Notes: generated from the letters alone by a model not told the origin. Shown: positions 10,335 through 42,094, counted from the first letter of the stretch. The stretch: DNA of 64,000 nt from Rhizaria sp. SCN 62-66 (GCA_001724265.1 MEDY01000083.1:1-64000); one strand, 5' to 3'. Numbers and translations: made by a program.

Positions 10335-12050
10335 ATGCGCTCACAGTTGCTCCAACAGCTCGCCTCTTAGGCCGCCGGCCCCGCGCCCTCCTCCGTGTCA
10401 TCCTCTTCGAAAAGTACGACATATCCTCATCAAATAATGCCAATAACTCAAACAACACTTCTTTATTGTTAAAGAACTACTATTGTGTCCTTATACTAAT
10501 TTTTTTCTGTAATATCTCTTTATTGCATATCCCCGCAATCCTAACTTCACCTCACGCACCCAACGTGTCTACTCTCTGTTTCCCCCAGACTCGTCTGCGC
10601 ACCGCTACAAGCCGCTGCCGCCCGTGGTGCGCGACCTGCAGTCGACGCTGGCGCAGCTGACCTACGGCCCGGGCGCGCTGTCCGCCGCGCTGCACCGCCA
10701 CTTCGTGCCGCTGTCTCACGACGACGCCACCGAGCGCTTCCTCACGCGCACGCTCTCGCTCTACGGCGCGTGCTCGCTGTCCAACTCTCTCTTCTCGGGG
10801 CTGCGATCGCTGTTGGGCAACTTCATGTCGCACGCCAACGTGCTTGCGCTGCTCAACACGGGTCGTATGCACGTGCTCTCGGCGGGACAGATGCACCACC
10901 TGCTGGCGCAGAGCTACGCGCGCGCTCCGCTCGACGTCGCCACGCTCAACCCCGAGCAGGCTCTCGCCCGCGCGCGCGCAACCACCTTTGCCAGCTTCAA
11001 CCCAGTGCTCTCCGCGAGCACCGGCGCCCTCGCCGGGCCCCGCGGCAACAGCACGAGCAGCAACAGCAACAGCAACAGCAGCAGTTCTCTGTCTGGTGCC
11101 AACTCTGCTGCTGCTGGTCCCGGGCTGGGAGAGTGGGCCGCGCCGCCGCCGTCACTGGGCTCCATCATTGCCGCCATGCCCCCCTTAGACGGTGTAAGTG
11201 TCTCCCCAGCAGACGACTCGACTCCACCTGCTGAGACTGTGGGGATGACTGCGCCTGCGCCTGTTGCGAGTGCGCCTATGACCGCGGCGGACTACGTGAC
11301 CGCCGCGCTCGCTGCAGTGGGACCCGCTGTCGACACGGACGAGCTGCTCGAGCACGCCCAACAACAGCATCAGCAGCAGCGCAATACTGCCAACGGCAGT
11401 GCGAGTGCGAGCGAGGACTCTCTGTCGCTGCCGTGCTTCGGGTCGTACCTGGACATCGGGGCCGGCGACGGTGCGGTGACGGCGCACGTCGCGCCGCTCT
11501 TCACGCACACTTCGGCGACCGAGGTGGCCCCGCGCATGTGCTCTCGCCTGCGCGCGCACGGCTTCACCGTGTACGAGACTTACGATATCACCACGGGGAT
11601 CCCCGCCGAGGCGCGCTTCGACACCATCTCGATTTTCAACGTCATCGACCGCTGCGACAAGCCCCTCTCGCTGCTGCGCGACGCGCGCGCGCGCCTCCGC
11701 GGGCCTGACTCGCGGCTGGTACTGTCTGTGCCGCTGCCGCTGCAGCCCTCGGTCGAGTTCGCGCCGCGCGAGTGGCGGGCCCCGACGGAGCGGATCGCGC
11801 CCGCGATGTGCTACTGCCAGCTCGACTGGGAGCAGGCCGTCGAGTTCCTCGTCCGCGACGTCGTTACGCCCGCGGGGCTCAGAGTGCGCGCCGTGTCCCG
11901 GCTGCCTTATCTGTCCGAGGGGTCGACTGCCAGGCCCTACTACGCACTCGATGACGCCGTGCTTGTGCTCTCCGCCGCCGAAACCGTGCCTGCCGCTACC
12001 GCGACCGCTCCCGCGACCGCTCCCGCTACTACTGCTACTGCTGCTGCTGT

Positions 12051-12087
<37 letters not shown>

Positions 12088-12156
12088 CCGGCCGCGAGTG
12101 CGGGTGCGCATGCTGTGGCTCCGACTGCCGCTGTGACTGTTGTAGAGTAGATGTGA
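10335..12156 (+). CDS. METTL9: METTL9/DREV-family protein-histidine methyltransferase, 2 exons, with in-frame TAG codons
   Basis: Exon 1 is 10335-10413 (MRSQLLQQLAS[TAG]AAGP...). Intron GTACGA...CAG is 10414-10588; exon 2 is in frame with ORF 10624-12150. Motifs LLNTGRMHVLS, YLDIGAGDG, ATEV, FNVIDRCDKP, LPYLSEG, YYALDDAVLVL. Ends TAG-ATG-TGA (12148-12156). Confidence 0.88.
12025..12087 (+). repeat. Imperfect (GCT)n tract encoding a poly-Ala/Thr tail of METTL9
   Basis: Run of GCT/ACT/GTT triplets read directly. Confidence 0.85.
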
Positions 12157-12455
12157 GTGAGCCTGCTGTGTGAACGTGAGAATGTGATGATGTTGCAAAT
12201 CTAATGTGTGCAAGTATGCGCTTGAATTTCTATAAGTGTACAGCGTATTACTTTGTGAGGAGGGCCAATTGTTGTAGATTATTAATTGCCTCCGACTAGA
12301 CCGGAATAAACTTGATTGATTTGTTTTGCTTTCGCATGTTGAGAGGCTATGTATGGTTGAATTATGATAAGTAGTATGATATCTGTACGTAGATAAGTAA
12401 AATATTAGGTAAAATAGTTGAAGAACTTGATTTGTTTCGTGAAACAAGTGTCAAT

Positions 12456-15400
12456 TTAGACAGTGGAGAGAATGGCTTTGAGAACCCTGACAACGTCCTT
12501 CGCGGCAGACGTAAGGCCGCCATCGAACCCGCCACAGTCGCTGACAGCAGAGCCAGAGCTGCTCGGGGGAACAGCGACGCCCCACAGCACGCGCATGTCG
12601 ACACTCAAGGCCGACACACTGCTGCCGTCGTCAGTCATGCTCCGAGTGCTCCAGTGACCACCGCCACTCCCGCTTACATTGTGAGCAGGCGTGGCAGCGT
12701 TAACATGGTTCGCCGCGTGCAGCGCTGTGACGGCGGTGGTTGCCAGCGCGAGCGCCGCCCCCGCTGCGGCCGCGGCGCGCTGCGACATGGCGTTGGCGAC
12801 CGCATCGGCCGCCTGTGCAACCGCAAGCGCCGCGCCGGCTGCAGCGTTGCCGTCGCTAATGTTGTTGAGACTGCTGCTCATGCTCGCGATGCTGGTGTGT
12901 GCGAGAACCATTGCGCTGTGTAGATACGCGCCGGCCGCAGCAGAGACGTGCGACAGAGCGTCGCACTGGTCACTAACAGAGTTATTAAGAGCGGCAGCAG
13001 CGGGAGCAGGAGCAGCAGCAGCGGTCGAAGTGTAGGCGGTGACGGCCTTCGTGGCACGGAGCCTCGCGCGCACGTCGCTAACAGTGCACGCGACGCCGCC
13101 ACTCAAATTGCTATTTGTGGCGCCCGCGTTCGCGGAGAGCAAAGTCAGCCAGAGAGCCTTCCGGCGCACGGCGTGCGACAAGCAACGCAGGCCGACGACG
13201 ACGGCAACGGATGCCACCGCGCCCGCCACCGCCGCCGCCGCAGCCTCAGCATCAACACCTGCCTGCGGCGACAGCGACGGCGCCTGCGACTGCGTCTGGG
13301 CCTGGGACTGGGAGAGAGGCAGAGTCAACCAGGCGGTGGCCGTGGTGCGGAAGGGGTCGTGACGAGCCCATGGGCCGGGCTCAAGGCCGCCGCTGATACC
13401 GGCGCAGTCCAGAGACCCGCTGAACACACTGTTGCCAACGCCGAGAACATTGCTAACCGCACCATTGTTGCCACTATTGTGATTGTTAATAGAAATAGCA
13501 GAGGCAAGCGAGACTGTAGCGGGTGCGGTAGCCAGCGCGGCGCGCACGATGGCGGCCGCGGCGGCCTCGGCCTCAGCGTCGCGCACGTAGATCGCCAGCA
13601 GGTCGCAGAGCCTGTGCAGGGATGTGAGCACGTCGGGCGAATATAGCGACGCAATATCGACGAGACTGACGGCGCTGACACTGTTGCCGCTGCTGCTGCT
13701 CGCGCGAGTAAACGGGGGCAGCGGGATCGAGAGCAGCGTTGCGGGCAGCGGCAGTGGCGGCGGGTTAGCGGCAGCAAGAGGGACAGGCGGCTGGGAGCTC
13801 TGTTGCTGCTTGCAATTGTCGCAACTCTTGTTGATGCTGCTACTTGAGCTGGAACTGTTGTTGTTCTTATTCGTGCTCCCAGACACACTCTTGTTATTAT
13901 CGCGGTTGTCGTTCTTGCTGTTAGCGCTACTGTACTTGCTGCTGTCGTCGTAGTCGTCCTGATCATCGTTGTCAAACAGGTCGTGGAGCACTTCAGCTAC
14001 GCCACTGCTGCTGCGACTAAAGCCGCTCGAAACAGCGCTCGCGTGAGCATCGTCGTCGCGCATACGCACAGGAGCGGGAGTCGCAGTCTTGTTCGAATTG
14101 GCACGAGCACTCGCAGACGCAGCATTCGAAGCGGTATTGTGAGTCTTGATGTTTTGGGCGTTGTTCGCGGAGGCTTGCGCAGCTGCAGCCGCGGCAGCAG
14201 CAACGACATCGGCCGCAGTGGCGGGAGCGGCGGCCGCGGCGGCAGCGGCGGCTGTAGACGCCGCCTTGCGCGGGCTCGTCCGCAGCGGCAACGTGCTGGC
14301 GCGAGCAGCACTTGCACTGGCACTCGGCTGGCTGGAAGGGGGACTAACGTGACTCGAAACAGCAGCGCGAGCAGAGTTGACAGCAGCAACTGCAGCAGTA
14401 GCTTTGGTCGCGTTGCTGGCGCCGGGATTTGCGATGCTATCTTTGCTCTGAATAGCACGAGTAGAAATGGTTTTAACAGCTGCCACTGCCGGGGTTGCGG
14501 GAGCCTGCGCCTGTCGCGTCGCCTTCGTCGCCGCGATCGCCTTGAGCGTGGCCGAGAGCTGTCCATCAAGCATGAAGTTGCACATGTCTTCGATGCTCGC
14601 GTTGTGCGAGGGTCGTGGGGGCGCGCTTGCACTGGCTGCGTCTGCACTGCTTGCGCCCTGTTGTTGCTGCTGCTGTTGCTGTTGCTGCAGAAGTTGCGCC
14701 TGCTGCTGCTGCAGCTTGCGCCTGCGCTCCTGAGCCGCGATTTCGTCAGGAGAGTACAGAGACCATTCAGGACCGCCGCTGCCGCTGCTGCTGCTGCTGA
14801 TGTTACTGCTACTGCTGGTAGCGCCAGTACTCGCGCTGCTCGTCACACTTCCTCTGGTTACCGCGGCACTGCCGGTTGCGCCACTGCTTTTACTGGCACT
14901 GGCACTGGCGCTGGCACTGGGACTCGTGGTGCTGCGAGTCGTAATGCCTGCGTGTGCGAGAGAGCTGGAACGAGACACAGGGCTGGTATTATTGGCAATC
15001 TTAGTCGCGCTCGCGCTCGCTGTCACGGCTGCTGCCTGGATCGTGGACGCAAAGGGATCGGCGTTCGAAGCGGCAGCGCCGAAGCCAGGAACGCTCTGAG
15101 GAGCTGAGCCGTTGTGACTCCGGTCACCGGTGCGTTGATCACGGTCATAGCGGTTCGAGTTACTCCTGTTATTCATGTTATTGCTATTGTTGTTGCTATA
15201 GCTATTCGCATGAGCGTAGTTGTTGCCATTGCCAGTTGCAGTGCTAATGTTATTGTTATTGTTACTCGGGCGATACGCTGAGTGACTACTGCTCTTGTTT
15301 GAGTTGTTATTGCCATTCGGACGGATAGGACGTCCCCACGAGTTGTTTGGGTTCATACCTGTCTGCGACGCACTCGTGTTGCTCCTGTTGCTCGTGCGGT

Positions 15401-16073
15401 CACGCTCCCAGTCCCTGTCGCGCTCATGGTCGCTGCGGTCACGAGTGCCGTAGGTACTGTTGCTGTTGCCGTTGCTGCGGACACGGGCGCGGTTGTCACC
15501 GCGCTCACGGTCGCTGCGGTCGCGCTGAGACCGATGAAACTGCGACTGAGAATAATGACGCGGCGGCGACCGAGACTGTGACCGTGACCGAGACCGTGAG
15601 CGAGAGCGAGAGCGTGAATTCGAGCGGCCAGACGACCGCCTCGAATACCGCCGAGGCGAGCGCGAGCGCGAGCGTGAGCGCGCCGGCGAACGTTTCGGGG
15701 AACGAGAGCGTTTCGACGAGTGCGAGCGCCTCGGTGAACGAGAGCGCGAGCGCGAACCAGCAGGGGACCTGGGCTTTGGAGAGCGCGTGCGGGCCGGAGA
15801 GCGCGCGCGCGTCGGGGAACGCACAGCAATTGTGGTCCGCTTAGGAGAGCGCGAGCGGGAACGCGAGTGGGCGCGCTGTGAGGACCGCTGCAGCTGCTGT
15901 TCTGACTGCTTTTGCTCAGTGGCTGCGCTGTCACTCGCAGCTGGTGAGGAATCGGAGTAGACCCCCTTGATCTCCTTGGCCTCCTGAGTGGGAGCGATGT
16001 AAGTGGCGCGCATCGGGAGTGCGGTAGCAGTCGCGCGACAAGGGGAGGCGCGGCGCGCCGGGGATGCTGACAT
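12456..16073 (-). CDS. Uncharacterised ~1,205-aa low-complexity protein with an N-terminal RS/RSP-rich region
   Basis: Uninterrupted GC-rich ORF between AT-rich spacers, with RSRSRSP repeats, Asn/Ser/Ala/Gln tracts and stop TAA. No globular domain recognised. Confidence 0.75.
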   Translation of the reverse strand: MSASPARRASPCRATATALPMRATYIAPTQEAKEIKGVYSDSSPAASDSAATEQKQSEQQLQRSSQRAHSRSRSRSPKRTTIAVRSPTRARSPARTRSPKPRSPAGSRSRSRSPRRSHSSKRSRSPKRSPARSRSRSRSPRRYSRRSSGRSNSRSRSRSRSRSRSQSRSPPRHYSQSQFHRSQRDRSDRERGDNRARVRSNGNSNSTYGTRDRSDHERDRDWERDRTSNRSNTSASQTGMNPNNSWGRPIRPNGNNNSNKSSSHSAYRPSNNNNNISTATGNGNNYAHANSYSNNNSNNMNNRSNSNRYDRDQRTGDRSHNGSAPQSVPGFGAAASNADPFASTIQAAAVTASASATKIANNTSPVSRSSSLAHAGITTRSTTSPSASASASASKSSGATGSAAVTRGSVTSSASTGATSSSSNISSSSSGSGGPEWSLYSPDEIAAQERRRKLQQQQAQLLQQQQQQQQQQGASSADAASASAPPRPSHNASIEDMCNFMLDGQLSATLKAIAATKATRQAQAPATPAVAAVKTISTRAIQSKDSIANPGASNATKATAAVAAVNSARAAVSSHVSPPSSQPSASASAARASTLPLRTSPRKAASTAAAAAAAAAPATAADVVAAAAAAAAQASANNAQNIKTHNTASNAASASARANSNKTATPAPVRMRDDDAHASAVSSGFSRSSSGVAEVLHDLFDNDDQDDYDDSSKYSSANSKNDNRDNNKSVSGSTNKNNNSSSSSSSINKSCDNCKQQQSSQPPVPLAAANPPPLPLPATLLSIPLPPFTRASSSSGNSVSAVSLVDIASLYSPDVLTSLHRLCDLLAIYVRDAEAEAAAAAIVRAALATAPATVSLASAISINNHNSGNNGAVSNVLGVGNSVFSGSLDCAGISGGLEPGPWARHDPFRTTATAWLTLPLSQSQAQTQSQAPSLSPQAGVDAEAAAAAVAGAVASVAVVVGLRCLSHAVRRKALWLTLLSANAGATNSNLSGGVACTVSDVRARLRATKAVTAYTSTAAAAPAPAAAALNNSVSDQCDALSHVSAAAGAYLHSAMVLAHTSIASMSSSLNNISDGNAAAGAALAVAQAADAVANAMSQRAAAAAGAALALATTAVTALHAANHVNAATPAHNVSGSGGGHWSTRSMTDDGSSVSALSVDMRVLWGVAVPPSSSGSAVSDCGGFDGGLTSAAKDVVRVLKAILSTV

Positions 16074-16627
16074 CAAGTCAAGCTGAGCAGAGCAGAGACG
16101 CTCCTTGAGTTAAGAAGAGCTTGCAGAGTGAAATCAGTCGAAAACAAAGTTGCTCGGGTCGGTGCTATGCAAGTTCTGAACAAATAATATAACAAAGACT
16201 GAAAAATTGGCTCAAATTTATCGTCGGATCGAATGAAAAATGACTGTTTTACAGAGAATACACGTCACTGCAAATGCTGATAAACAATGCTCAATGAAGC
16301 GCGAAGCGAGAGTGACTGACACGAGCCGAGCTTTTTTGCGAACCGTGGCCGACCAAAATGGGAGTCTTCGAAGCAACCGTTTCTTCATCGTGAACTATCT
16401 CAGCTCCGGGCTTGGGATCGCCAAACGTCGCTAATTCTTCTTTGCTCGTATTGTTCGCTTAATAATTATTCTAAACATTACTTTGGTTTCGCGTCTCACG
16501 ACTTTCCTGCCCCACACTGCGTGCCTCTATTCCGACTCTCGCCGACCTCCTGCAGGCTACCAACAAGACACCACAAAGTCAACGTTTCCCCGCCGCCTCC
16601 ACCACTTTTCGTTCTGCTTTTAGCACC

Positions 16628-19367
16628 ATGTCCTCGCAAGTGGTGGCTGTGACCCAGCTCCGGCAGGGTTTTTCCACCACTCGTCCCCTCGACCGACACT
16701 ATGACCCGGTCTACACGACCTCGAAGACTCGCGGCGGCGGTGGCGCCCAGCAGCAGGCCGCCTACGCCTCGAACGCCGCCCACGCCGCGACCATCCGCTC
16801 GCACCCGGGCCCCGATGTCTCCGGCGCTGCCCCGGCCACGTCGTCGGCCGTCATCGGCGCCGGTGCCGTCGCCACGATGCGCCCCGCCCCGCCGTCCTCT
16901 TCAAACACTGCCAACGCGTCCGTCTCGGCCAGCTCCAGCTCTGCGGCGTCGGCATCTGTGGCGGCCGCGATGGAGGGCGACGCGCGCGTGATCCGCGGCG
17001 CGCACCGGTTTAAGTTCCACACGCGTCCCGTGATGCCCTACATGAACGCGATCCCCGCCGAGGTTCTGCTCTCCCCCGAGGCCATCGCCGCCGCCGCCGA
17101 GGCTGAGGCGCAGCTCGCCAACGCCAACGCCGACGCCGGCGCTGCCGCGGGTGGCGCGGTCGACACGGAGGCGCAGAGCAAGTCTGTGGGCGTGCAAACC
17201 GTGTACCGCGAGTCGCAAACGCAGACCCTGCCATACACGCCCGACTACATCACGGCGCCGGGCCAGGCCGACCCCGAGGTGCTGTCCATCGCGCACCTCA
17301 AGTGGGGCGCGGGGCTGCCCGCCGGGCTGGAGGAGGTACAACTGATCCAGAAGCTGCGCGAGAAGCGCGCGTTTGAGGCGTCGCTTCCGACGGGCACGGA
17401 CGAGGCGTCGCTGCAGCAGCGCAAGCGGATGCTGGAGCAGCGCGAGCTGCAGGAGTGGGCGACGCGTGAGGAGGAGATGCGCGAGGAGCAGGAGGCGCGG
17501 CTGCGTGTGCTGATTGACACGCTGCAGGCGCGCGAGGAAAAGGCTGCGCTGCTGAGCGAGGCGCGCGTCGACGCCATCCGCGGCGAGGCGGTGCGTGCGC
17601 GCGACGCCGCGCTCGAGAGCATCCATCGCGACCGGCTGAAGGCGCAGCGCGCGCTCAAGCACGGGCACGAGGCCGCGGACAAGAAGGAGAGCAACAAACA
17701 GAAGCGCGACATCATCACCGAGACGGCCGACTTCGGCTCCAAGGTGTACGCGCCCGCGACGCGCGAAGGCAAGATTCCTCCCCGCAACCAGGTCGTCGAC
17801 TACGGCATCCCGCTTATCAACAACTACCAGGGCCTCGTCGCGCTCGAAAGCACGCTGCGCACGCCTGCGCTCACCTCAGCTCCACAGGTACGTCACTATC
17901 TCTACTAATGACTCAGGACTCTGTTTCAAGATAACATTTTTAAACTGTCAAACACATCTCGAAACTCCCACGTATGTACTTCATCTTTGAACGTAACTCA
18001 CTCTCTGACTTGTTTCTTTTTTTCTTTGCTTCTGCCGCTCAGGAGATCGCCGCCCCCGCCGCGGGCTCGCTGGTGCCCTCGGACCGCGCAAGCGTCAAGG
18101 CCGTCGCAGACCTGGACTACCTCGACGCCGTGCTCTCGGGCACCGTCACCAACACGCGCGGGCCCCTCGCGGCCAACAAGTACCGCCGCTTTGAGCCTGT
18201 GGTGCGGCCAGCCCCGCAGACGGTCTCGGCGCCCGCCAACGAGGAGGTGACGCAGGCCGTGCTGCTGCTGCAGCGGCTGCTGCGCGGCCGCGCCGTGCAG
18301 GAGTCGATGCGGGCCTCGCGCGCGCGCTCGCAGCCGCTCATCAACGAGCTGCGGCTGCTCGAGTCCGCTGCGGGCGCCGCCGAGGCCAGCCAGCTCGACG
18401 CCGCCGCCGCTGCTCAGGTACGTGTCATCAACAAGGAGGAAGAAACAGCTCTATGTCGTGTAGATTGTGCAATGAGACAACGATATCGCGAGGATGTACT
18501 GTATTATGCTATCATTTTAGTATCGGTTAAATTATTAAACTCATCTACATCTCGCTCCAATGCATCACTCTCACATCCCAACTTTCACTTCATCTTCTTT
18601 GTTCGACCCTGATACAGGACGAGACTGAGCTTGCTGCCGCGGTGGACGCCGTTGAGGGCCACGTGCTCTCGTCCGCGCTGGACTTCCTCACCAAGGAGGT
18701 CGTGCGGCTCGTCGAGGAGCGCAAGGTGGTCACCTTTGCCTCTGCTGCCGCCGAGGCCCGGCGTGCGCGCGAGGCGGTCGAGGGCGGGCGGCGCCAGGCA
18801 GAGCACGTGCTGCATAAGAAGCGTGAGCAGCTGCTCGAGCAGGTCGTCACGGTGCACAAGGAGACGGCCGAGCGCTTCACCGAGCGCCTCCTCGCGGGCG
18901 CCGTGAGCAAGGTTACTGCGCAGGCCGCCGCGGGCGCTGTGGACGCCGCCGCGGCGCAGGAGCGCGCCGACAAGGACGAGCAGACGCAGCGCCGGCTCAA
19001 CGCCAAGGCCGCCGCCGCCGCCGCCGCCGCGCTCGCGCCCGAAGACGCCGCCGCCGAGCAAGAGGAAGAGGAGGAGGAGGATGACGAGGACTCGGCGCTG
19101 GTCGTGCGCGACCTGCTCTCGAACCTGGTGCTGCCTGAGGTCGTGCGCAAGCGTCTGGCGGCCGAGGAGGAGCTCGCCGGCCGGCGCCACCTCGCGGGCG
19201 CCAACGCTGCGATGGTCAGCGCCTTCATCGACGTCGCCAAGGCCACCGGCGCCGTGCCCAACGCCGCCGCGGGCCCCCACGGCGGGCGGCTGACGGTGCC
19301 TGTGCCCGTGCCAGATCACCAGGCCGTGCTCGCGGAGCAGTTGCAGCAGCAAGAGCGGCACCAGTAA
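16628..19367 (+). CDS. CFAP91: Cilia- and flagella-associated protein 91 (MAATS1/AAT1-like), 3 exons
   Basis: Exons 16628-17887, 18043-18417, 18618-19367. Motifs YDPVYT, GVQTVYRESQTQTLPYTPDY, LKWGAGLPAGLEEV, DFGSKVYAP, LQRLLRGRAVQ, LDFLTKEVVRL. Stop TAA. Confidence 0.9.
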
Positions 19368-21655: not shown

Positions 21656-22263
21656 TTGTGTGCTGAAAGACAGGCGTCTGCGAGGGGAAAAAGTGGTTGA
21701 GGGGGCGAAAGAGGTCAGGATATGGGTGTGAGAAATGGTTGATATAACAGCCGTACGTGCGAGTCTCGAAGCATCAATTAAAAGGTATAACTAAATTTGC
21801 ACTGCAAATCCGAGATGGGGGCTTAGATATTTCCTGCTCGACCAGAAGTTGTCGATCAGAGAATTTTCTTTATACCCCTCGGTCAGCATGTTCGGCAAGT
21901 CGGGTTCGCGAAAAAAATTCGAAATCGTGACCGGACGCCACAGCAGTAAGCAAGGGCCAACGGCCTCCACTCAAAGGGGGCTTCTTCGTTGCCTGTTATT
22001 GGCCTGGTATCTGGGTGAATAGTCCTCATATTGGTTGATTATAGCTATCCGCTTCTGGTTTTGTACGAATAGCAAAACCAATATTGCGTGCCGCGCGATA
22101 ACAACGCCCAATTTGTCGGTCAAACTTTTTGTTCCGACTTGGCGAAATCAAAATCTCTCATCGCTTTGCAATCGACCCATTGACCCACTAACCGTGACTG
22201 TTTCTCGCTGCGAACTCACTTTTACAAAACTATACAATCTCTTATTTTCTGTGCTATGTGTAG

Positions 22264-24619
22264 ATGTTCGCTCGCCGCGTTTCTAAGCTCTCCAAGACCG
22301 TCTCCACTGTGAGCGCTCGCGCCATGTCCTCTGGTACGTCCGAATCTTTACTCTCTTCCCGTGCCTTATGCCCCTCACAATCCCTCTATTATTGTACAAC
22401 GCTCCGAATATTATTCTCCCCGTGTGCATTTCTCTATGCTTCTTGGGTTTTTATTTCGAATGAAAGCCTTATTTATCGCTTCCTACGCCCACTTTTGCTT
22501 CTCGCTTTGGACCCTCCCTTTGCGCGCGCCTCCTTTATCACCTCTCATGTCGCGCTCTTGACCCACCTAACCCATCTCATTTGCCCTATTTGACCACTCA
22601 GGCGCTGAGCTCACTGGTGCCCAGATTACCCAGATGTGCAAGGAGACCAGCATCTACCCCTGGTCTGCCCAGGCCGCTGTCAACCCCATCCCCGTCGTCC
22701 GGTAAGTGACACTCAAACGCAATCTTACTCACTCCTTGACCGCCTTCCTCTCATGCTAGAAACCGCACCTGACGCTATGATGCTCTTATTGTGTAAATGA
22801 AACGTTTTCTGTGCTTTTATTCGCTTTTCTTGCTCATTTAAAACGCTAAAAACCAACTCTTGTTCCACTCTGCACCCCTGAAACCCCGCTTCTTATAGCG
22901 CTGACGGCATCTACTTCTGGGACGCCGACGGCAAGCGTTACACCGACTTCAACTCGCAGCTCATGTGCACCAACATCGGCCACAACAACCAGAAGGTGAT
23001 CAAGGCCATCCAGGACCAGGCCGCCGAGCTGGCCTTCGTGGCCCCGTCGTTCGCCACCAAGCCCCGCGCGCAGCTCGGCGAGATCCTTAAGACCGTCACG
23101 CCCCCTGGCCTCGACAAGTTCTTCTACACCCTCGGCGGCGCTGAGGCTGTTGAGAACGCTATCAAGTTCGCCCGCTTCCACACCGGTACGCTCAAAGCTT
23201 CTTATTTTAAACTAATGCCTCCTTCTTGTTCACAATTCTTATAGCACTTGACCACCGTGTTCTTCAATTGATCTTAACTTTATAAATATTCTAAATTAAT
23301 ATGTTCTTTTTGTTTTGTATACTTTTGTGATCTTTGTGTCCTTTAGGCAAGCACAAGATCATCACCCGCACGCGCTCGTACCACGGCGCGACGTACGCCG
23401 CCATCTCGCTCACGGGCGACTCGCGCCGCTGGGCCAACGAGCCTGGCATGTCGGGTATCGTCCGCGTCGATAACCCCTACATGTACCGCTCGTACATGAT
23501 GCGCGACGGCATGAGCGAGGAGGAGTTCTCCGCTGTGATGCTCGCCCAGCTCGAGGAGACCATCACCCAGGTACGCTACGTTTTCTATTTAACACGCATT
23601 TGAAGACCTTCATGACCCTGAATTTAAATGTGTATGCTCTTTATGCTTTATTTGAATTGAAACTCATTTTCCCTTTGTCTTTGTTCTTAAATCACTTTTG
23701 TTTAGGAGAACCCCGACAACATCGCGGCCATGATCCTCGAGCCCGTGACTGGCTCCAACGGCGTCATCATCCCCCCCAAGGGCTACCTCCAGGGCGTGCG
23801 CGCGATCTGCACTAAGTACAACATCGTAATGATCGCGGACGAGGTCATGGCGGGCTTCGGCCGCTGCGGCGAGTGGTTCTCCGTTGACCACTTCGGCGTC
23901 GTGCCCGACATTATCACCATGGCCAAGGGCATCACCTCGGCCTACACCCCGCTCGGCGCCGTTGCCATCAACAAGGACATTGCCAAGACGTTCGAGACCA
24001 AGCCCTTCGTCGGCGGCCTGACTTACAACTCCCACCCCCTCACCCTCGCCGCCGCCGTCGCCTGCATCCAGGTACGTCCTACGTGGATCAAAACAAGAAC
24101 CTTAGATACTGGATTCGACGACAAAAATTGTGATATATTTCGATTGAAGTATCCTAATGTTGTATCCAAATGTATTGTAGTATCTTTACATTTTAATTCT
24201 CACAAACACAATCTCTCTGTACTGTTCTCTTTGTGTCTGTCTTGCGAGCGCAGGTGTTCAAGGAGGAGAAGATCATCGAGAACACGCGCGCGATGGCGCC
24301 CGTGATGAAGCAGCTGCACGCCGAGCTCAAGGCCAAGCACAAGTCGATTGGCGACGCGCGCTCCATCGGCCTCTTCGGCTGCCTCGAGCTGGTCAAGAAC
24401 CGCAAGACGAAGGAGCCGATGTCTGTCAACGGCGGCCCCGTCGACCCCGCTGTCGGCAAGCTCGTCGCGCGCCTCCGCGAGAATGGCGTCTTTGCCATGG
24501 CGTTCGGCCACCTGCTGCTGACCAACCCCCCGCTGACGATCAACAAGAAGCAGCTCGAGGAGACGTTCGCCATCTTCGACGAGGCCCTCACCATCACCGA
24601 CGCCGCCTCCTCCGAGTAA
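22264..24619 (+). CDS. Class-III PLP-dependent aminotransferase with a likely mitochondrial presequence, 6 exons
   Basis: Exons 22264-22333, 22602-22701, 22899-23185, 23347-23570, 23706-24071, 24254-24619 join in frame. Motifs GIYFWD, GGAEAVENAIK, SYHGAT, ILEPV, IADEVMAGFGRCG, DIITMAKG (PLP Lys). N-terminus MFARRVSKLSKTVSTVSARAMSS. Stop TAA. Confidence 0.93.
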
Positions 24620-24632
24620 GCGCGCCGGCCTG

Positions 24633-24660
24633 CTCTCTCTCTCTCTCTCTCTCTCTCTCT
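24633..24660 (+). repeat. (CT)14 microsatellite in the aminotransferase 3' UTR
   Basis: Read directly. Confidence 0.95.
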
Positions 24661-31444: not shown

Positions 31445-33200
31445 CGAGATGCGGGCGAAGCTTGAGTGAAGGGTGGAGGAAATGAAAGAGTGGCAGGAAA
31501 GTGAGATAAGAGTTTGGTGAACAATAAAATAGGTAAAATATAATATGCAGCCTTTTAATGCTATTAAAAGCGTTTAATTTGCTAATGACGAACAAAAGTA
31601 GCTCATTTGAAGGCAGGTCCGGCGCTGGGTGTGCGGAGCGATAGAGCTTCTCGACTTGTGGCTCGTTGCTCTGCTTGACCACTGGTGAGTAACTCTGCGA
31701 CGTTAACTCTATTTGACCGCTTGTCTCAGTACTACTCTTTGTTTTCTTCATTGAAACTCAAATATGTTATTTATAGTCGAGTATTGTATATTATAGTTAC
31801 GAGTTCTCTGCATAACTTATTATATCCCGCCCTATTTTTACACTTTACTCTGTACATCTCGACAACGGCGTATCTGGCTTTAAGTGTAGCATGCAGTCCG
31901 TGACAGGAGTTGTGACAGCAGTGGCATATAATCCTCCATATAACCATCAATTATTGACATGATACTACACTTTTCTCGCGTGAGCTGGTCACTTAACCTC
32001 AAGTAGCAGAAATATGTCTCCGAGTATGTGTAACATTTGTGACACAGCTGCTGAAACAATGGCAGACAGCGCTGTAGGAATGCAGATACTACGCTGCTAA
32101 AAGCGCTCACTGCCTGCACCTCTGTCAAATGAAGCCCAGGGTGTAGTAAAACCACCGCTCCAGTGACTCGGAGCAGTGACAGTCGGTCAGCCGCAGTGCT
32201 AAAAGGAACTGCGATGCAACTAAAGTGAACAAATCCTGCTATACGATAGCCTTAATGAAGCCATGTACTGACACAGCCGCGCTTAAAGCATAAAAACAGG
32301 TTATATAACAAGACGATGCTTTCATAGACCCAATGAACCTTCGATAATCAGTGCTATGCGTTGCATTAGCACTTTGTCCACGCCTGCCCAAAATCACGCC
32401 GGATACCAAAGACCCTGCAGCAAACATACTTCCAGAAGACTTGAGACGACTACGTTTTACTAAAATACGTAAAGCACCACAAAACCACGATTAGCAAAGT
32501 CTCGGCCTCAAAAAGCACGGTTTTGACTATGAACACATTACTTTGCCTTCGCGAGAGATGCATGGGTGCGGAGGTCCGATAGCCACGCTTGGCGCGATCT
32601 CGTAAGCAAGATATTTCCTACTTCCGACCATCCTGAGCTACTTCCGTGGTACCATCAGTTGTGTATAGCTGTTTTCTTTGTGAATATTATTTTGAAATCC
32701 TCCCTGTGCGCGCATTTGCGGCGCACAGATACCCTTCTGCTTCCGAGCAGCCCTCTCGGTCACACACTCTGACGTCTCGCCCCGCTCCCGTCCTTCTTAG
32801 CGTTTTCTATTCTGACTGGAAAGTTCCTGCTTGCTTGTGCGACGCTTCTACTACACGCATAGGCTTTGCTTCTCTCTCCGCAACTGCTTTTTCGTTTACG
32901 CATAAACTATGCACTGGACTAAGAATGACGAGCGAAGGACTAGGACAATGGGCTTTTTACTCCACCTGCATTTTTCCTTCATGACGCTCTCCAGCATCAC
33001 TGCATAGCGATGCGATGCATGTTATTGTGCCAATTGCTTTCCCATTTAGTATTATCCTGATGTCATTTTCTCACTGAACTCCGTCCTCCCCCTCCACTAT
33101 CATAGGCAGACACAAGCACAGCCCACCCCGCATCTCACCCGCCCCGCAGCGCCCCCCACAAGAAGAAGAAGACCCGGCCGAAAACCGTTTTGTGTACAGG

Positions 33201-35871
33201 ATGCTGTCCCGTCGCTTCCTCTCCCGCTGCCCGGTGCCGCTGCCCGCCGCGTCGACGGCCAAGACGGCCGCCGCGGCCTTCGCCTCCGTCTCCGCCTTCA
33301 CCACCCTCATCAACAGCAAAACCAACAAAAGCGCTCCGATGACGCCCGTCGCGACTGGTGCGACCGCGACCAAGACTGCCGCGGCGCACCCTCTGCTGAC
33401 GCCCACGCTGCGCCGCTTTTCGCCCCTTGCCAGCGCCAGCAACAACGTCATCTCCCTCTCTTCCCACACTAAGTTTGCCAAGCCCAACAAGAGCTCCACG
33501 TTCGCGTCCCGTCTCTTCTCCTCCTCGTCCTCCAGCGCGAGTAGCAGTTCCGCGGCCGACGCGATGGCGCTGTCGGGCAGCGGCATTATCCCCGTCAAGG
33601 AGCGCTACACGGCGGCCGAGGTGCGCTACATCATGTTCCTGCTCGACGCGGGCATCATCGCCGCCGAGGCCCTGCCGCCCGCGCTGCGCCCCGCCGACGC
33701 GCCCCCCGCCGCCGGCTCCGGCGCCAAGGCGGGCAGCAGCGCGGTGATGGCAACGCCGGCCAACTCGACGACGGCCGAGGTGGACGTGTCCAATTTCGTC
33801 CCCGCCGACGTCTTCCTGCTGCTGCTCAACACCTACACTATGACGCTGCCGGAGAGCGAGCGCCACAAGGTTTTCCAGCGCGAGTACAACCGCTACCACT
33901 ACCTCCAGGCCCAGGCGCGCTTCTCCGCCACCTCCGTCGTCAACAGGGAAATGGACAAGATGAAGGCCGCGCTCCAGGTACGTTTCACAGAAATGTGCAG
34001 ATTTAAATTAAACTTGTTAACTTTGTAAGGGACCTGAGCTTTTTCAGATTGACACCCGAAGGCTTTTGACTGGTGGTAGACACTGCGGTGACTTTTTTTA
34101 TGTCATGCTGTATTGTAACTAAGGCAACTTGTTATTAGGTTAACTTTGAAATGACTTTATCGAAAGCTAAAAGAATCGCTCAAAAGAATCACTATCAGAA
34201 ATGTACATTCTTAATTCTCACATCGCCATTTTATTCTTTGTTCTCTCTCGTCCCTCGACTCCCCAGGCCGAGGGCGGCGTCGGCGCTCCCGAGCCCGAGG
34301 TGGTGATGGGCACGTTTCGCACCAACTTTGCCACCGGCGAGGTCGAGTTCTCTGATCCCTCCCTTTTTCGCAACCCCGTTGCCAAGCAGCAGCACTAGCA
34401 ACTCACCAGTGGCTCCTCAGACGCGGCGGCCGCAGGCGCAGCGGCGGCGGCCGCAGGCGCCAAGGGCGGCTTGACGGGCTCGGGCTCTGGCGCGAGCGCG
34501 AGTCGTATGATGGCGTACAACAGCGGCATGGCGCCTGTGCCCAACAGCTTCGAGGACACGTACATGCTCGACGAGAGCAACGCCGACGCCGTCCTCAAGA
34601 AGCGCAACAAGATGTTCACCAGCATCGACCTCAACAACGACGCCGCCGGCAGCGGCGGCAGCGGCCCCGCGACGACCCCGTTGTCGTCGAAGCGTTCTCC
34701 GCGCAATGCCGACGCCAGCGGCAGCGTCGGCGGCAACGGCGAGAAAGGCACGGTGCTGGCCGCGACGGCGGACCCCAACGTCAGCGTGAGCGTCGCCGTG
34801 GCGTCCCCGCAGAGCGCGCGGCGCGCGCTGCAGGCGCAGGAGTCGGCCAGCAGCGCCGCTGAGGCCGGCAAGGAGGGCTTCTTCGCGAGGCTGCGCCGCA
34901 ACCGCGCGAACAAAAGCGCCGCGGCAGCCGCCGCCAACATCAACAGCTTCAGCTCATTGTTGTCGGCGCACGTGACGCTGACCAAGCCGCGCATCTCGCT
35001 GCTGGTGGCCATGACGTCGTGGTGGGGCTACTTCCTCACCGTGCCGCACGGCGCCGTCGACATGACCAACCTCACGGGGCTCACCATCGGCACGCTCTCG
35101 CTGGCGGCCGCCGCGAGCGTCATCAACCAGATCCGCGAGACGGACGTCGACGCGCGCATGACCCGCACGGCCACGCGCCCCCTCGTCTCGGGCAAGATCT
35201 CTATCGCCAGCGCCAAGCGCGCCGTCGCGCTCTACACCGCGCTGGGTGCCGCTGTGCTCACAGTCGTCGACCCCATCGCCGCCGGACTCGGGCTCTTCAA
35301 CGTCTTCCTCTACGGCGGCGTCTACACCAGCCTTAAGCGCGTCACGCGCCTCAACACCGAGATCGGCGCCATCGTGGGCGCGATCCCGCCCCTGATGGGC
35401 TACGCCGCCGCGCTGCCCGCCGACGCGAGCTTCCTGACGTACGACCCCGTGGCGATGCTGTGGCCCGCGGCCGTGATGATCGCGTGGCAGATGCAGCACG
35501 TCATGCTCATCTGTCTGCGCCGCTCCGAGGACTACAACCGCTCCGGACTCGTCATGGAGTGCTTGAACGACCCTTCGCTGATGCGCACGCGCACCAAGGG
35601 CGTCGCGTGGGCCGCCGTGACCACCGCGGTCGTGGCGGCGCCCTACTGGGCTGGGTACATGGACATCCGCCACATCTTCATGGTCTACGTGTGGGGCATC
35701 TATACTGCGCTCTACGCCTCGGGCGCGCTCAGCAAGATCCCCAAGCAGCGCGTGCTGCTCATGGCGCTCTACCTCGGCTACCTCATCCTCGGCGCCACCA
35801 TGTGGATGTCGTGCGTCACCAAGAACAAGACCGAGGAGGACAAGTACAACGACCTCATGCTCAACCTTTAA
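33201..35871 (+). CDS. COX10: Protoheme IX farnesyltransferase (heme O synthase) with presequence and long N-terminal extension, 2 exons, one in-frame TAG
   Basis: Exon 1 is 33201-33977 (MLSRRFLSR...). Intron GTACGT...CAG is 33978-34266. Exon 2 (34267-35871) is one frame except for TAG at 34396-34398. UbiA/COX10 motifs LTKPRI, NQIRETDVDARMTRTATRPLVSG, YTSLKR, GAIVGAIPPLMG. Stop TAA. Confidence 0.9.
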
Positions 35872-36952
35872 GTTCGCGAGCGTTTTGAGTGCTTCCAAGC
35901 GCATCGTCCTGTGCAAGCTCTCGCGCTGCATCGCATCGCCACCGAGAGGCGCGTGGAGCACGCGAGTACGTGCAGCTACCCCGCGAAGTTGGTCAGCGCC
36001 GAGCCGGCGACGACGGCCGCCAGGCGTAGGTCGCCGTCGCCGTCACCCGGCGCGGGGGGTCTCGGTCGGCTTGTCCAACCGGCTCTCGAGCTGGCCGGTC
36101 AACTCGAAGAAGCTCAATGTGCGTTTTTTGTTGGGTTGCGTGTTGGTTGGACGTCGACTTCAGAGGAGGAGGATTATTATGATGCTATCGTGCTCCTTAG
36201 TCCCTATTCAAAGTAAACGTAGTTAATTCTTGAGTGAACTATCTTTGTTTATATAGAAGAGCAGCAAAGCATCGCTGTCTTTAAGTTATTGTTTGGTCAT
36301 CTTCTTTTTTCGCGCTAAGCTTACAATCAGGAATAAGTTGTGTTGTTGTTTTTTAGGTTCACAGAGATATGTTTGTGTTTGCAGTTACAAATATGCGTGT
36401 TTTTCATTTGCTTTATCATTAAATTATATAATTTATTGCAATAAATATAAGTTTGAAAAGGAACGCGATCACTTTGTTCGAGTGTCTGGGTTCTTTATGA
36501 TTCGACCCGACACTCCAGCTTCGGCGCGTCTCTGAGAAGCGCCATCCTCAGAATCAGCTCGGCGGGGCCCATCACCGTGGTCAGCGCGGCCCGCGAACGC
36601 GCTGTTTTTTGTCTGGGCGATGTCGCAGCGAGCCGCGGGGGGAGGGGGTATTAGTATTACTAGTAATACCTCCCTGAGCTCTATTATAATAATCATATGG
36701 TAATGAGGCAGCACATCATTATGTGTGGACGTCATGTGCAGCCAATTTTAATAATATTTTTGTTCTCCTCCTCAGTTTTTTTTGTGCCGAACACCTTCAT
36801 CGATATAATGTAAAAGATTCGGGATTCTAGTTCATACGCCGTAAAATATTTTTGTGAAGTTTGTACACAAATATATCAAACGAAAAAATGAATTTTCTGT
36901 AAAATTAATTAAGTATTAGTAACAAAGATTCGGGCTGTTAGGACCCAAGGAC

Positions 36953-37025
36953 AGCCGCATAGCACAGTCGGAAGTGCGCCCGCTTTACACGCGGGAGGTA
37001 ATGGGATCGAAACCCATTGCGGCTA
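36953..37025 (+). tRNA. tRNA-Val (anticodon TAC)
   Basis: Full cloverleaf: acceptor AGCCGCA/TGCGGCT plus discriminator A, D stem GCAC/GTGC, anticodon stem CCCGC/GCGGG with loop TT-TAC-AC, T stem ATGGG/CCCAT with loop ATCGAAA. Confidence 0.93.
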
Positions 37026-37032
37026 CGCTTAA

Positions 37033-37041
37033 TTTTTTTTT
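37033..37041 (+). terminator. Oligo-T Pol III terminator of tRNA-Val
   Basis: T-run 8 nt downstream of the tRNA 3' end. Confidence 0.8.
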
Positions 37042-38542
37042 GCTTCTGCGACTTCCGCAACCAGGCGCATCAGCAAGGCGCTCATGACCATTTTTTTTTG
37101 CAACCCCCGGCGCTCTCCGACCCCGCGACGATAACTTTCAGTCACTTCTGGCGCTCTGTCAGTGCTCAGCGGTGTCACGCTATGTAACACTGTGCTGCTT
37201 GTTGTTTGTAAACAGTTGACCTGCGAGCAGTGATCCTGTCCAAATATGGATATGGGGCAGATATCAAGTGCTGGGAAGCTGCTGTCAATGTTCCGCCGTT
37301 GTACATGTCCAGCATTTACATTTCCTGTTAATACTTGCATTCCGTGTTCAGCTGGCGCGTGTACCGCGCTGTTGCCAGTCGGTAGCGCACGAACTGTGTG
37401 TAGTTTCCGCGCACGGCTGTTGGTCCCCTTTTCGCCGCGCCGCTCTTTCTTACCCCCGTAAGACTCGCGCCGACTTTGCGCTATTTCTCTCATCACTTCT
37501 AATATCACTCTGTGCGGCCGCCGTCGGCGCCCTCGCACTTTGGTACTAGTACTGTTGACACGCGCTTTGCTTCCTTTCATCTTGCGCCACGCGCGTGCTT
37601 GACTCATATGTTTGTGTTTGCGCTTCCGTCGCCGCTCTTCGCCACAGTCGCCGCCGCCTCTCATTGTCGCTGCCGCACTCTGCTGCCGCTTCCGCGTCGC
37701 AGCTCTTCGCTTCCCCGGCCACGCCACGACTCTGACAGCCCTTGTCACTCCTCGCCGTCGACTCCGCCTTAAAAGCGGCCCGCTTGCACCTACCGGCTTA
37801 TCTGCGCATTTATAGTCAACACCGGCGTCGGCAACTGTTTGCTTTGAGAACGCGCATTGTGTTACGGTCGTATCTATGCACATGCAGTTTCCTTTTGCGA
37901 AATCCGTCGCGCTACCCGCAAACGTCGCGGGTAATAAAAAAATGCGTTTAAGCACATAAAAACGACGCAGCGCGCTTGATAACGAGCACGTGGACGAAGC
38001 TATGGTGCCACTTGTAACTGGTTTGAGCTTGAAGAACCAAACCTGCGAGCACTAGATCACTGTCAGCGAAGTGGTTTTTTAAGGCAAAAGATCAAAATCA
38101 AGTGTGTATTAACAATACTCTATATTAAGCAGTTCAAACAAAGTTGAGCTTATTTTTTTGAGGTATAACTACCTCTTATCGAAGCACGTGCATCATCATA
38201 CATTTTTCTCGACACTGTAGGCAAGATATACTTGGCTGAGTAAACATTTCTACATCAATTAAACTTGAATTACAAAGCATCATAGTGTCAACATAATATA
38301 GCAAAGTTCAAGGCAATTATATAATGTTTTCATGGAGATATCCTTCAGAAACTGTCTCTGAACAGACCCGTTACAGCGTGACCGAGGGTGACTGTGGGCT
38401 GGCCCTCGCGAAAGGCAGAAGAGGACAGTTAGAAGACCGCGAGTCCGGGTGTTCGCAAGTCTGTTTGTATCTAGCGTATGTGATCGTCGCTTGCGTTTGT
38501 TTACCGCTCACAAGTTTTTTTATTTCTTTTGGTTCTTTTTAG

Positions 38543-41500
38543 ATGTTTTCTCGCACCGTAACTGCGTGTCGGGGGGCATTCCATGGCCCGATTCAGATGC
38601 CGGCCCAGCCTCCGCGTCTGACTCCCTCCTCCTCGTCTTTCTCGTCGTCCCCAAACAACCGCCGTGGCGGAAACGCTGAGGAAGCGTCCTCTGCCATGGT
38701 TTCCCGCGTCGAGAACTCTCTCCGCTCTATGCTGCGCACCACCACGCCTGCTGCGGAGGCCCTCGTCTCGAGTCTCCCTGCGCTCAAGCGCGCTGCTCTG
38801 CGCGACACGATGACCGAGACCGACGGCTCCTCTCTGTCGGCCTCCTCCGCGGGCGCCGCCTCGGGCATCTCCTACGTCGAGCGCGTGGACCGGCTTGCGC
38901 AGCTGCCGCGCGTCGACGGCGTGCGCTCCCCGCTCGTCGCCGACGCCCTGGACGAGGCCGCGCTGCACCGCGCCGCGCACCAACTCGGCGCGCGCGTCGT
39001 CGCGCTCGACGCCTCGGGCAAGCCCGTCAACAAGCTTGTCGGCGGTGGAGAGGCCGTGCTGCTCGAGAGGCGCCGCGCGAACGCCGCCGCCGCGCTGGCC
39101 GCCGTCTCTCGCCAAAGCAACAGCACCACTGACGTCGAAAACGATAATCAAGGGGACAACGACCCGACGTCTCAGAGCGCGAGCGCTCGTCTTGACTCCG
39201 ACTCGGCGCCGTTCGCAGCAGCCTCAGACTCCACCGACAACAATACCAGCGTTAGCTCCAGCTCTAGCTTCAGTTATAGCGCCGTTGCCTCGAGTGCGAG
39301 TGGCGACCACGCCGACGCGCCTCGTGTGGACCCCGACTGGAGCGCTGATTTGCTCGAACTGGGGCTCTTTGACTCGCAGGTCAAGCAGCAGCACCTGACC
39401 GACGGCGCGACCTTTGCGCTCACGCACAAGTCGCAACAATACCATGAGAATGAGAATGACGACGATGAGGCTGGTTATGGCTTTGATAGCAACAGTGTGA
39501 ACAATAACACGTCGTCGTTTTCGGGCTCGTTGCACGCCGAGCGCGACGCTAACGCCGCGAGTGCGGCCCGCGGCGCACAGTTCTCCCTTCCCCCGAACCC
39601 GAGCAGCAGCAACAGTACCAAGAGCGGTGCGAAGCAAGTCTCGTCTTCCGCGAGCGCGTCCTAGGACGCTCGGTCGAGCGCCTCGCACTTGGACGACGGG
39701 TCCAAGGGGCCCGTTCTCTACACCACCCGCACGCCGGCCTCGCTGCCCATCACAGCTCGCCTCAACGAGTCCATCTCCTCTGCATCCAACGACAGTAACA
39801 CTTCTACCAACGGCTCGCTGAGCGCCGCAGTGCGGAAGACTCTCGCGCCCGCGCTGTCGTCGTCCGCCGCGCTGCCCGACGGCGTGTCCCCGTCGGACGC
39901 GGTCTTCACGCACGGCCTCATCCTGAACCCCGACGCCGTCTCGGCCTCGGCGTCCTCAGTGGCCACGGTCCCCGCGGAGGCCGTGGAGCGCGCGCACCGC
40001 GAACGCATCCGCGACACGCTGCGCGGCTTCGCGGCCGCCCGCCGGCGCGGCGAGCTACGGCGCGACGACGGCAGCGCCATGACGGTCCGCGAGGCCGCCG
40101 CCGCGCTGGGCGTCAATGTGCGCGGGCAAAAGGCGCTGCGCCGGCTCGAAGAGACAGGCGAGGTGCCCAAGGAAGCGATCCCTGCGCTGCCGACCACGCG
40201 CGAGGTCTCCAAGTCCTACGGTAAGCTGCTGGTGCGCACTCTGCACGACGTGGCCGCGGTGGTGGCCGAGGTGGGCGAGAGCGCGGCGACGGGCGGGCAG
40301 CGCGAGTGGGTCGACAAGGCCTCGGGCCGCACGGTCATGCTCCCACCCTCGGACGGCGAGACGACGGCGCACCTGCCGCCGCCGCTAGCCGCGGCCGTCG
40401 AGTCTGCCGAGAAGGTGTTCAACTCGTTCGTGCTGACGGCCCCGCTGGAGGCGACGCACTACGCGATGATGATGACGTTGTACGGGCGCGTCGACATGCC
40501 GATCAAGGCCGCGGCCGCGTTTGACGCGCTCCGAGCCTCGGACTCGGCCGTGCCAGACACGGTCGCGTTCAACGTCATGCTGGGCATCATGGTGCGCGCC
40601 AACAAGGTCGCCGCGGCGTGCCAGCTGTTCGAGGAGATGCGCAGCATGGCGCACGTCACGGGCGCCTCCCCCGACGCCGTGACCTACACCACCGTCATCT
40701 CCGCGCTGGGTAAGATCGCCGACCGCGCTGGCGCGCTGACGGTTTTCTCGCAGATGCGCAAGGACGGCATCGCACCCACCGTGCCCGCGTGGACGGCTGT
40801 GATCGATGCCATGTGCCGCGCCAACGACTTCAAGGCCGGACTGCGGCTTCTGCACGACATGCGCGAGTCGGGCTCGGTGCCCACCGCGGGCACCTACCGC
40901 GCCGTCGCCGTCTCGTCCTGCCGCGCGGGCCACGTCAAGCTGTTCCTTGCGCTGGCTGAGCAGATGCGGCGCGACGGCCACGCGCTCGACCCCGTCCTGC
41001 TCGCTTCCGTCATCCGCGGCTTCGGCGAGGCGGGCAAGGCGCTGGAGGCCATCCGCGTGCACCGGCAGCTCTCGCTGGGCGCCTTCGGGCCGGAGCTGCG
41101 GCCGACGCAGCTGACGTACAACGCGCTGCTCGAGACGCTCGCGGACCCGCACGCGTGGGGCAAGCTGTCGCTGCCGCCGCTCGCGCTCGACGCCGGCATG
41201 CAGGTGCTGCAGGAGGGCATCCTGTCGGGCATTTTCCCGTTCCCGTACGAAACGCGCGATCAGAGCGGTGTGCTTGACTTGAGGCCGTACCACCGCAACG
41301 CCGTGCTGTTCCCCATTCACCTGTTTCTGAACTTGTTGGTGTCGCCGATGCTGGTTTCTGCGGACCGCGTGGCGCGCATGCCGTCGACGATTGCACACGT
41401 AGACCGGTCCTCCGACTTCGTCTTCAGCTCCGTGGCGATCCCCCGGCGCGGCGTGCTGATGCTGGGCGCGCGCGAGGCCCGCAAGCCGTGGTCGGCCGCG

Positions 41501-42094
41501 CCGCGGCCGATGCCGTACAACGCGGGCGGGAAGCTGCGCGCGCACGGCGGCGTGGTGCACGACCCCGTGCTGCTGCAGGACGAGGCGGCGCGGCCGTCGC
41601 GCGAGTACATCGAGAACGTGCTTAAGTCCACGCGGCCCTGGGTGCACTCGCAGCGGCTGAACCAAAACGCCTGCGCCGTCATGGTCGCTACTGCCACGCT
41701 CCAGTTTTGGGTCAAGGACCAGTTCCGCCGGCTCGAGATTTCCAAGCACCACGCCGCCGTCATGCAGCAACACTCTCAGTCGCAGTCGCAGTCCGCCAGT
41801 AGTCGCGCCAACGCGGCCATTGCGAGCGCGGCGGCCAGCAACGGCAACAGCGCGAACAGCGCTAACGCCAGCGTCAGCGCTAGCGCTAGCGCGAGTGCGA
41901 GTACGGGTGCGGGTGCGAAGAAGAAGGTCCGTTTGACTGAGCGCGAGAAGGCGGCGCTGACGAACGAAACGGCGTCGCCATACGCGCAGCTGCAGCGCGG
42001 GCGCAAGCTCCGCCTGGAGGATGTTGCGGAAGCGGTGGTTGTGGCGACTGCGGAGCGAAAGACACAGGGACGGCAGAGGAAAAACGACTATTAA
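38543..42094 (+). CDS. Pentatricopeptide-repeat protein, probably mitochondrial, single exon with one in-frame TAG (~1,183 aa if read through)
   Basis: ORFs 38543-39664 and 39689-42094 share a frame and are separated only by TAG at 39662-39664. PPR motifs PDTVAFNVML, PDAVTYTTVISALGK, PTVPAWTAVIDAMCR, PTQLTYNALL. N-terminus MFSRTVTACRGAFH. Stop TAA. Confidence 0.85.

Follow-up and report, generated by a model that had tools for sequence, protein, structure and literature searches.

Nuclear genetic codes in which UAG has a meaning other than that of UAA are known from a handful of independent lineages, evidence that decoding of the two can be uncoupled. Reassignment of UAG alone is described for Iotanema spirale, where it encodes Gln, and for the sainouroid rhizarian exLh, where it encodes Leu (PMC5304391). 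In Iotanema, 126 genes hold 204 in-frame UAGs; these make up about 8% of its Gln codons, and many sit at conserved Gln columns, while exLh has Leu at 82 of 86 hyperconserved positions (PMC5304391). Among the phyllopharyngeans, Hartmannula sinica and Trochilia petrani read UAG as Gln and three TARA metagenome-assembled genomes (MAGs) read it as Leu; UAG occurs in 78-91% of genes, and tRNA(CUA) genes were found (PMC11687900). UAG is also recoded in Protocruzia tuzeti, in Scotinosphaera (UAG = Ser) and in a ciliate that reads UAA as Lys and UAG as Glu; precedents exist for Ser, for Leu and for Glu (PMC11687900). The literature that we searched reports no UAG code in a wastewater protist or a stramenopile nucleus. 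Here we describe a stretch of DNA of 64,000 nucleotides (Rhizaria sp. SCN 62-66, GCA_001724265.1, MEDY01000083.1:1-64000; hereafter the window) that recurs in metagenomes of bioreactors, wastewater and activated sludge from the years 2015 to 2025. Within it, the genes for COX10 and a PPR protein, and under a predicted exon model also METTL9, carry a TAG in frame. We lean towards the reading that UAG is translated as a sense codon in COX10 and PPR, and probably in METTL9.

To score reading frames, we used a codon-usage log-odds score trained on long open reading frames (ORFs), and we scanned all six frames for stop codons with 40 coding-like, stop-free codons on each side. Two stops qualified, TAG in both cases (34396 and 39662); neither a TAA nor a TGA was flanked in this way. 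The 40-codon flanks scored +17.5 and +11.1 at TAG 34396 and +16.3 and +10.8 at TAG 39662, where true coding 40-mers have a median of 11.5 and off-frame medians lie at about -15 to -17. A further 15,464 codons contained no in-frame stop at all. Together with METTL9, this gives three in-frame TAGs in about 16,600 codons (two or three of the 18 protein genes), with neither TAA nor TGA in frame. TAA is the first stop in 11 of the 18 genes, TGA in six and TAG in one, namely METTL9, whose end reads TAG-ATG-TGA. A preliminary description of this DNA had placed TAGs in the same three genes, and we find them at 10368-10370, 34396-34398 and 39662-39664. Its view that UAA and UGA are still stops holds as well, with 17 of 18 genes ending in one or the other and neither found in frame; its tally of stops was right in naming METTL9 as the sole gene with TAG and in how that gene ends, while its count of 15 genes has risen to 18.

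The COX10 gene provides the first of the two qualifying TAGs (here and below, a slash marks an exon-intron boundary):

33201-33977, plus strand: COX10 exon 1, with a presequence-like N-terminus (MLSRRF...) and the conserved N-terminal region
33978-34266, plus strand: COX10 intron of 289 nt, AT-rich, phase 0, CAG/GTACGT...CCCCAG/GCC
34267-35871, plus strand: COX10 exon 2, with the UbiA/heme O synthase domain (Pfam UbiA, E 8.8e-37)
34396-34398, plus strand: in-frame TAG, about codon 303 of about 793, in AAG CAG CAG CAC TAG CAA CTC
35869-35871, plus strand: COX10 stop codon, TAA

We compared this gene with the COX10 of a relative at about 60% identity, a contiguous protein of 753 aa (P0006). The ORF at 33078-34028 aligns with residues 33-202 of P0006 at 43% identity (E 1e-34), exon 1 has a coding score of +120 against -154 and -66 in the other frames, and both proteins start with MLSRR, which resembles a mitochondrial presequence. 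The preliminary description had the position of the TAG right and overlooked this upstream exon, with which the TAG becomes about codon 303. In exon 2, residues 9-39, just 5' of the TAG, match residues 226-256 of P0006 with 81% identity (E 6e-16), and the UbiA catalytic domain follows downstream of the TAG. The next ATG lies at 34507, and a restart there would cost the protein its presequence-like start and about 340 residues. The intron has a GC content of about 0.37 as opposed to 0.6-0.9 in the exons, and its donor fits the consensus of the window: the 13 introns that we placed measure 130-290 nt and stand out from the GC-rich exons by being AT-rich, with GTACG as the donor in 12 of them (mostly CAG/GTACGY) and GTTCGT in one. 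Examples are 33978-34266, 10414-10588 and 23189-23345, and the uniform GTACG 5' splice site could serve as a lineage signature. We also observed that P0006 is a single ORF across the site of the 289-nt intron, which was gained or lost between the two lineages.

The second qualifying TAG lies in the PPR gene:

38543-42094, plus strand: PPR protein gene, one frame of 1,183 codons (PPR repeats, E 9e-28)
39662-39664, plus strand: in-frame TAG, codon 374, in GCG TCC TAG GAC GCT
42092-42094, plus strand: PPR stop codon, TAA

The encoded protein is 60% identical to that of a relative (P0002). The 373 codons 5' of the TAG score +116 in frame and -128 and -155 in the other two frames; they include a presequence-like N-terminus (MFSRTVTACRG) and, directly upstream of the TAG, a match to P0002 with 15 of 29 residues identical (E 0.002). 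From the TAG to the first in-frame ATG (40079) there are 138 codons, 55% identical to P0002 (E 6e-37). With no ATG inside it, this conserved stretch must be produced by translation through the TAG.

For METTL9 the case depends on how its first exon is modelled:

10335-10413, plus strand: METTL9 (DREV) exon 1, modelled, with ATG at 10335 and a phase-1 end
10368-10370, plus strand: in-frame TAG, codon 12, model-dependent, in TAG GCC GCC
10414-10588, plus strand: METTL9 intron of 175 nt, AT-rich, AAA/GTACGA...CCCCAG/
10589-12150, plus strand: METTL9 exon 2, with the DREV methyltransferase domain (Pfam DREV, E 9e-43)

The first 79 codons of exon 2 contain no ATG and are 41% identical (E 1e-13) to a homologue (P0211), so an upstream exon is needed. 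Between 9741 and 10600 the only GTACG donor is at 10414, and in the frame set by exon 2 the only ATG is at 10335, with TAG 10368 lying between this ATG and the donor. Since 10414 is the sole consensus donor, both the ATG and the TAG are forced into the METTL9 frame; TAG-free alternatives would require donors that deviate from the consensus. We therefore find it plausible that the METTL9 TAG lies within coding sequence under the predicted exon-1 model. The TAG context, CTCGCCTCTTAG/G, also resembles an acceptor, but it lacks a consensus donor upstream. At the other end of the gene, the frame first meets a stop at 12148-12150 (TAG), after which come ATG and TGA (12154-12156), in a low-complexity tail that cannot be aligned. 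A near-identical METTL9 protein (P0210, 482 aa) departs from the window in the Ala-rich tail encoded by GCT repeats at 11980-12150, which probably reflects a difference in repeat length or assembly between samples.

These genes could have been mis-modelled, with the TAGs ending separate upstream ORFs or lying in 5' untranslated regions and the proteins beginning at later ATGs. Prokaryote-style database calls do treat COX10 in this way, as in an entry of 453 aa (P0005) that begins at a Met past the TAG. Yet conserved sequence lies on both sides, the 138 codons of PPR and the 79 of METTL9 are conserved and lack an ATG, and the AT-rich DNA that separates genes in the window is absent at the TAGs. 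For COX10 and PPR, homology rules out TAGs in 5' untranslated regions upstream of the true starts, and we regard mis-modelling as a whole as barely credible. Standard-code gene callers would be expected to truncate proteins of this organism, the database COX10 starting after the TAG being one example. The idea in the preliminary description that the TAGs fall within genuine coding sequence and have to be translated has gained considerable support, in COX10 and PPR from homology on both sides; in METTL9 it depends on a supported exon-1 model.

To see whether the TAGs persist elsewhere, we examined other assemblies. The contigs of two runs (X2 and X3) do not differ from one another and were treated as one; their DNA contigs at 32576-35213 and 38095-40859 cover the COX10 and PPR TAGs and show no differences from the window. 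A contig from another study, of 2025 (X4), covers the PPR TAG at 39230-40455, again without differences, and X4 differs from the window at five positions in the 20 kb compared. A scan of metagenomes with the PPR alignment returned a single locus, a Joint Genome Institute metagenome contig (L001) that is identical to the window over 38121-41035 and in which the PPR TAG is also unchanged; the contig of the relative was not among the loci returned. No second haplotype was found in X2/X3 over the 20 kb compared. Because independent contigs are identical at the COX10 and PPR TAGs and no second haplotype is present, assembly error or heterozygous alleles are unlikely as the source of the TAGs.

The same data bear on the idea that these are nonsense alleles or young pseudogenes, that is, premature stops fixed in a clonal wastewater population, with the genes dead or backed up. 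A null model of nonsense mutation, applied to this codon usage, yields TAG in about 70% of cases, which makes it the expected nonsense codon; CAG CAG CAC TAG CAA in COX10 resembles a C-to-T change in a CAG tract, the sites are poorly conserved, and the strains compared are almost identical. However, two or three of 18 neighbouring genes would have been hit without any frameshift or other lesion, and coding scores are normal on both sides of the TAGs. COX10 is required for respiration and would be among the dead genes. No alternative haplotype appears in X2/X3, and the TAGs are unchanged in samples from 2015 to 2025, a decade of persistence. We consider this explanation quite improbable.

In another explanation, the TAGs would be changed or removed in the mRNA, by U-to-C editing or as part of in-frame micro-introns. 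Candidate micro-introns can be drawn at both qualifying sites, GTTGCC...TAG of 21 nt in COX10 and GTCTCG...TAG of 27 nt in PPR, each opening with an in-frame GT that lies a multiple of three nucleotides before the TAG, and P0006 lacks 11 residues around the COX10 site. An in-frame Val codon would, however, occur within 10 codons upstream about half the time by chance, and these segments are GC-rich and only 21 and 27 nt long, in contrast to the AT-rich introns of 130-290 nt with GTACG or GTTCGT donors. In a poly(A) metatranscriptome (X5), there is depth in the bins that hold the COX10 and PPR TAGs, and the rows listed for it show no variant there, and neither a base change nor a gap or joint at the two sites. 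None of the listed RNA contigs bridges the COX10 or the PPR TAG, which would fit removal from the mRNA, but neither the uncovered parts of X5 nor the missing bridging contig in its listing speaks for or against this. Taken together, we judge a change at the mRNA level very improbable.

Several points weigh against translation of UAG as a sense codon. The evidence consists of only three TAG codons, of which the one in METTL9 is model-dependent, and METTL9 may really terminate at TAG. As the preliminary description had noted, conservation is poor around all three sites: the alignment columns are unconserved or gapped in each case, and the COX10 TAG lies inside an 11-residue segment (NPVAKQQH(TAG)QL) that P0006 lacks in an alignment of P0006-P0010. 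Because none of the three TAGs is at a conserved column, no amino-acid preference can be demonstrated. That TAG is the only stop found in frame is uninformative, since this is what chance would give under the nonsense null with its share of about 70%, and a total of zero or one TAG terminators among 18 genes departs only slightly from what is usual. From the persistence of the TAGs little can be concluded about selection, because the strains compared are nearly identical. One X5 contig (33913-34176) is collinear with the genome across the boundary of COX10 exon 1 and its intron and retains the intron, so the library contains DNA or unspliced pre-mRNA. A tRNA(CUA), which the preliminary description had proposed as a check, was not found in the window even when introns were allowed, the search returning one tRNA, Val-UAC; nor does the window contain an eRF1 gene. 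Finally, UAG usage here is orders of magnitude below that of the known cases, and widespread use is not seen. Genome-wide reassignment of UAG, inferred from three codons of one window, is not proven.

Some of these points would also be expected under a standard code with leaky or programmed readthrough, in which UAG is still a stop and a near-cognate tRNA yields enough full-length protein. In-frame TAG is extremely rare (three in about 16,600 codons), TAG may be the true terminator of METTL9, and all three sites lie in unconstrained segments. UAG-CAR-YYA is a readthrough context, and TAG CAA CTC in COX10 partly resembles it. On the other hand, the three contexts differ (TAG CAA CTC, TAG GAC GCT and TAG GCC GCC) and share no motif, and TAG terminates at most one of the 18 genes. 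Known readthrough adds C-terminal extensions, whereas here the stops would leave N-terminal fragments, without any domain, of essential mitochondrial proteins. Readthrough on a standard code grades into reassignment and is a real rival, although we think it unlikely to be the explanation.

Under the reading that we favour, in which UAG is a sense codon, the TAGs of COX10 and PPR, and probably that of METTL9, would be ordinary but very rare sense codons. A suppressor tRNA(CUA), or near-cognate decoding combined with an eRF1 that no longer recognises UAG, would insert the residue, and TAG would be tolerated only in unconstrained linker segments. Since there are only three TAGs in about 16,600 codons, the reassignment would be young or inefficient. 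In a more specific form of this idea, the reassignment would be early or ambiguous: UAG would be nearly gone as a terminator and just reappearing as a sense codon in unconstrained linkers, while perhaps still serving as the stop of METTL9. We regard this form as possible but rather doubtful. Two of the three TAG-bearing genes encode mitochondrial proteins, and all three TAGs are N-terminal and poorly conserved; on this view, partial decoding of UAG might act as a gate on how much mitochondrial protein is supplied. As for the residue inserted, Gln, the choice of the preliminary description, would remain the leading guess as a prior, with Ser, Leu and Glu also possible. The sequence CAG CAG CAC TAG CAA in COX10 suggests descent from CAG, and among the precedents Gln is the most frequent. 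The Ser-rich and Ala-rich contexts at the other two sites, in PPR (SASAS(TAG)DARSS) and METTL9 (QLAS(TAG)AAGP), would suit Ser as well as Gln.

We next describe the surroundings of these genes and the organism that they point to. In total, we recognised 18 protein genes and one tRNA in the window, which has a GC content of about 60% and about 77% GC at third codon positions in genes, with AT-rich spacers and introns:

Annotated genes, first part: MtnA; PfkB kinase; SET-domain protein; Brix protein; METTL9/DREV; RS-rich protein; CFAP91; BCNT
Annotated genes, second part: class-III aminotransferase; rhomboid; NOP9; COX10; PPR protein; giant ORF with cyclase domains
Four further protein genes: no family match
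558-1799, minus strand: MtnA (methylthioribose-1-phosphate isomerase)
15530-16109, minus strand: long RS/SR dipeptide-repeat domain, the N-terminus of a gene of 1,217 codons
36953-37026: tRNA-Val(UAC), the sole tRNA in the window
37029-38051, minus strand: ORF of 340 codons, with no family match and a score that is not coding-like
46921-63999, minus strand: giant intron-less ORF of more than 5,690 codons, extending past the window edge

The giant ORF has only two weak matches to adenylate/guanylate cyclase domains, and its bulk belongs to no family. It had been described as free of TAG, and we indeed counted no in-frame stop of any kind in its 5,692 codons. The region 36000-38500 is gene-poor, and the depth of X5 there is almost nil. 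At looser thresholds the stop scan gave further TAGs, all of which were rejected: those at 3679, 23703 and 45124 are the 3' ends of introns, that at 21793 lies in AT-rich upstream DNA, and that at 15842 is in the antisense frame of the RS-rich region; the remainder are in antisense frames of genes or in low-scoring stretches. The antisense frame of the RS/SR-repeat domain, which holds TAG 15842, scores as coding and is a trap for codon-usage scans.

To judge from CFAP91, COX10, PPR and the introns placed in the window, the organism is an intron-bearing, flagellated (CFAP91) and aerobic (COX10, PPR) eukaryote. In a tree of 27 MtnA sequences, that of the window falls inside a well-supported clade of 12 environmental sequences with 61-79% identity, and this clade stands apart from the named stramenopile and Chloroflexi rows. 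The nearest named matches are oomycetes and a labyrinthulomycete (56-60%), and Chloroflexi match at least as well. Because its MtnA groups with the 12 environmental sequences, the organism has uncultured relatives in several data sets. Scanning the contigs of genome assemblies with MtnA returned 10 loci, all of them in bacterial MAGs, and no eukaryotic relative was found among them.

How does this locus compare with the described codes? Like Iotanema, the window has UAG in frame while UAA and UGA terminate, and Gln is again the likeliest residue; none of the Iotanema genes examined was seen to terminate at UAG, and in the window UAG ends zero or one of 18 genes, METTL9 being ambiguous. In contrast to the share of about 8% of Gln codons in Iotanema, the three TAGs of the window come to about 0.6% when set against the 543 Gln codons of our count, and none is at a conserved column. 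Iotanema is also a different organism, and that of the window is aerobic (COX10). With exLh the window shares a UAG-only reassignment, if it is one, in an uncultured protist known from sequence data only. Unlike the window's organism, exLh comes from an insect host rather than from wastewater, and Leu is assigned there but not at the unconserved sites of the window; the two are lineages without evidence of a link. The phyllopharyngeans resemble the window in that UAG is decoupled from UAA and UAA is the preferred stop (11 of 18 genes in the window), and some of their cases likewise came from mining metagenome assemblies (PMC11687900). They differ from it in their GC content of 27-54%, compared to about 60% (PMC11687900), and the window is a long multi-gene contig with introns of 130-290 nt. 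The ambiguous codes of Condylostoma, karyorelicts and Blastocrithidia would accommodate both an internal, sense TAG and a possible TAG stop in METTL9; their reassigned codons, however, are abundant and include UAA and/or UGA, which are never in frame in the window. If the reassignment is true, it would be an additional independent event, in a GC-rich, aerobic, flagellated wastewater protist. Its unusually sparse usage may then mark an early stage, and would fit the earliest stage in the codon-capture and ambiguous-intermediate models, one that is not seen in the described cases.

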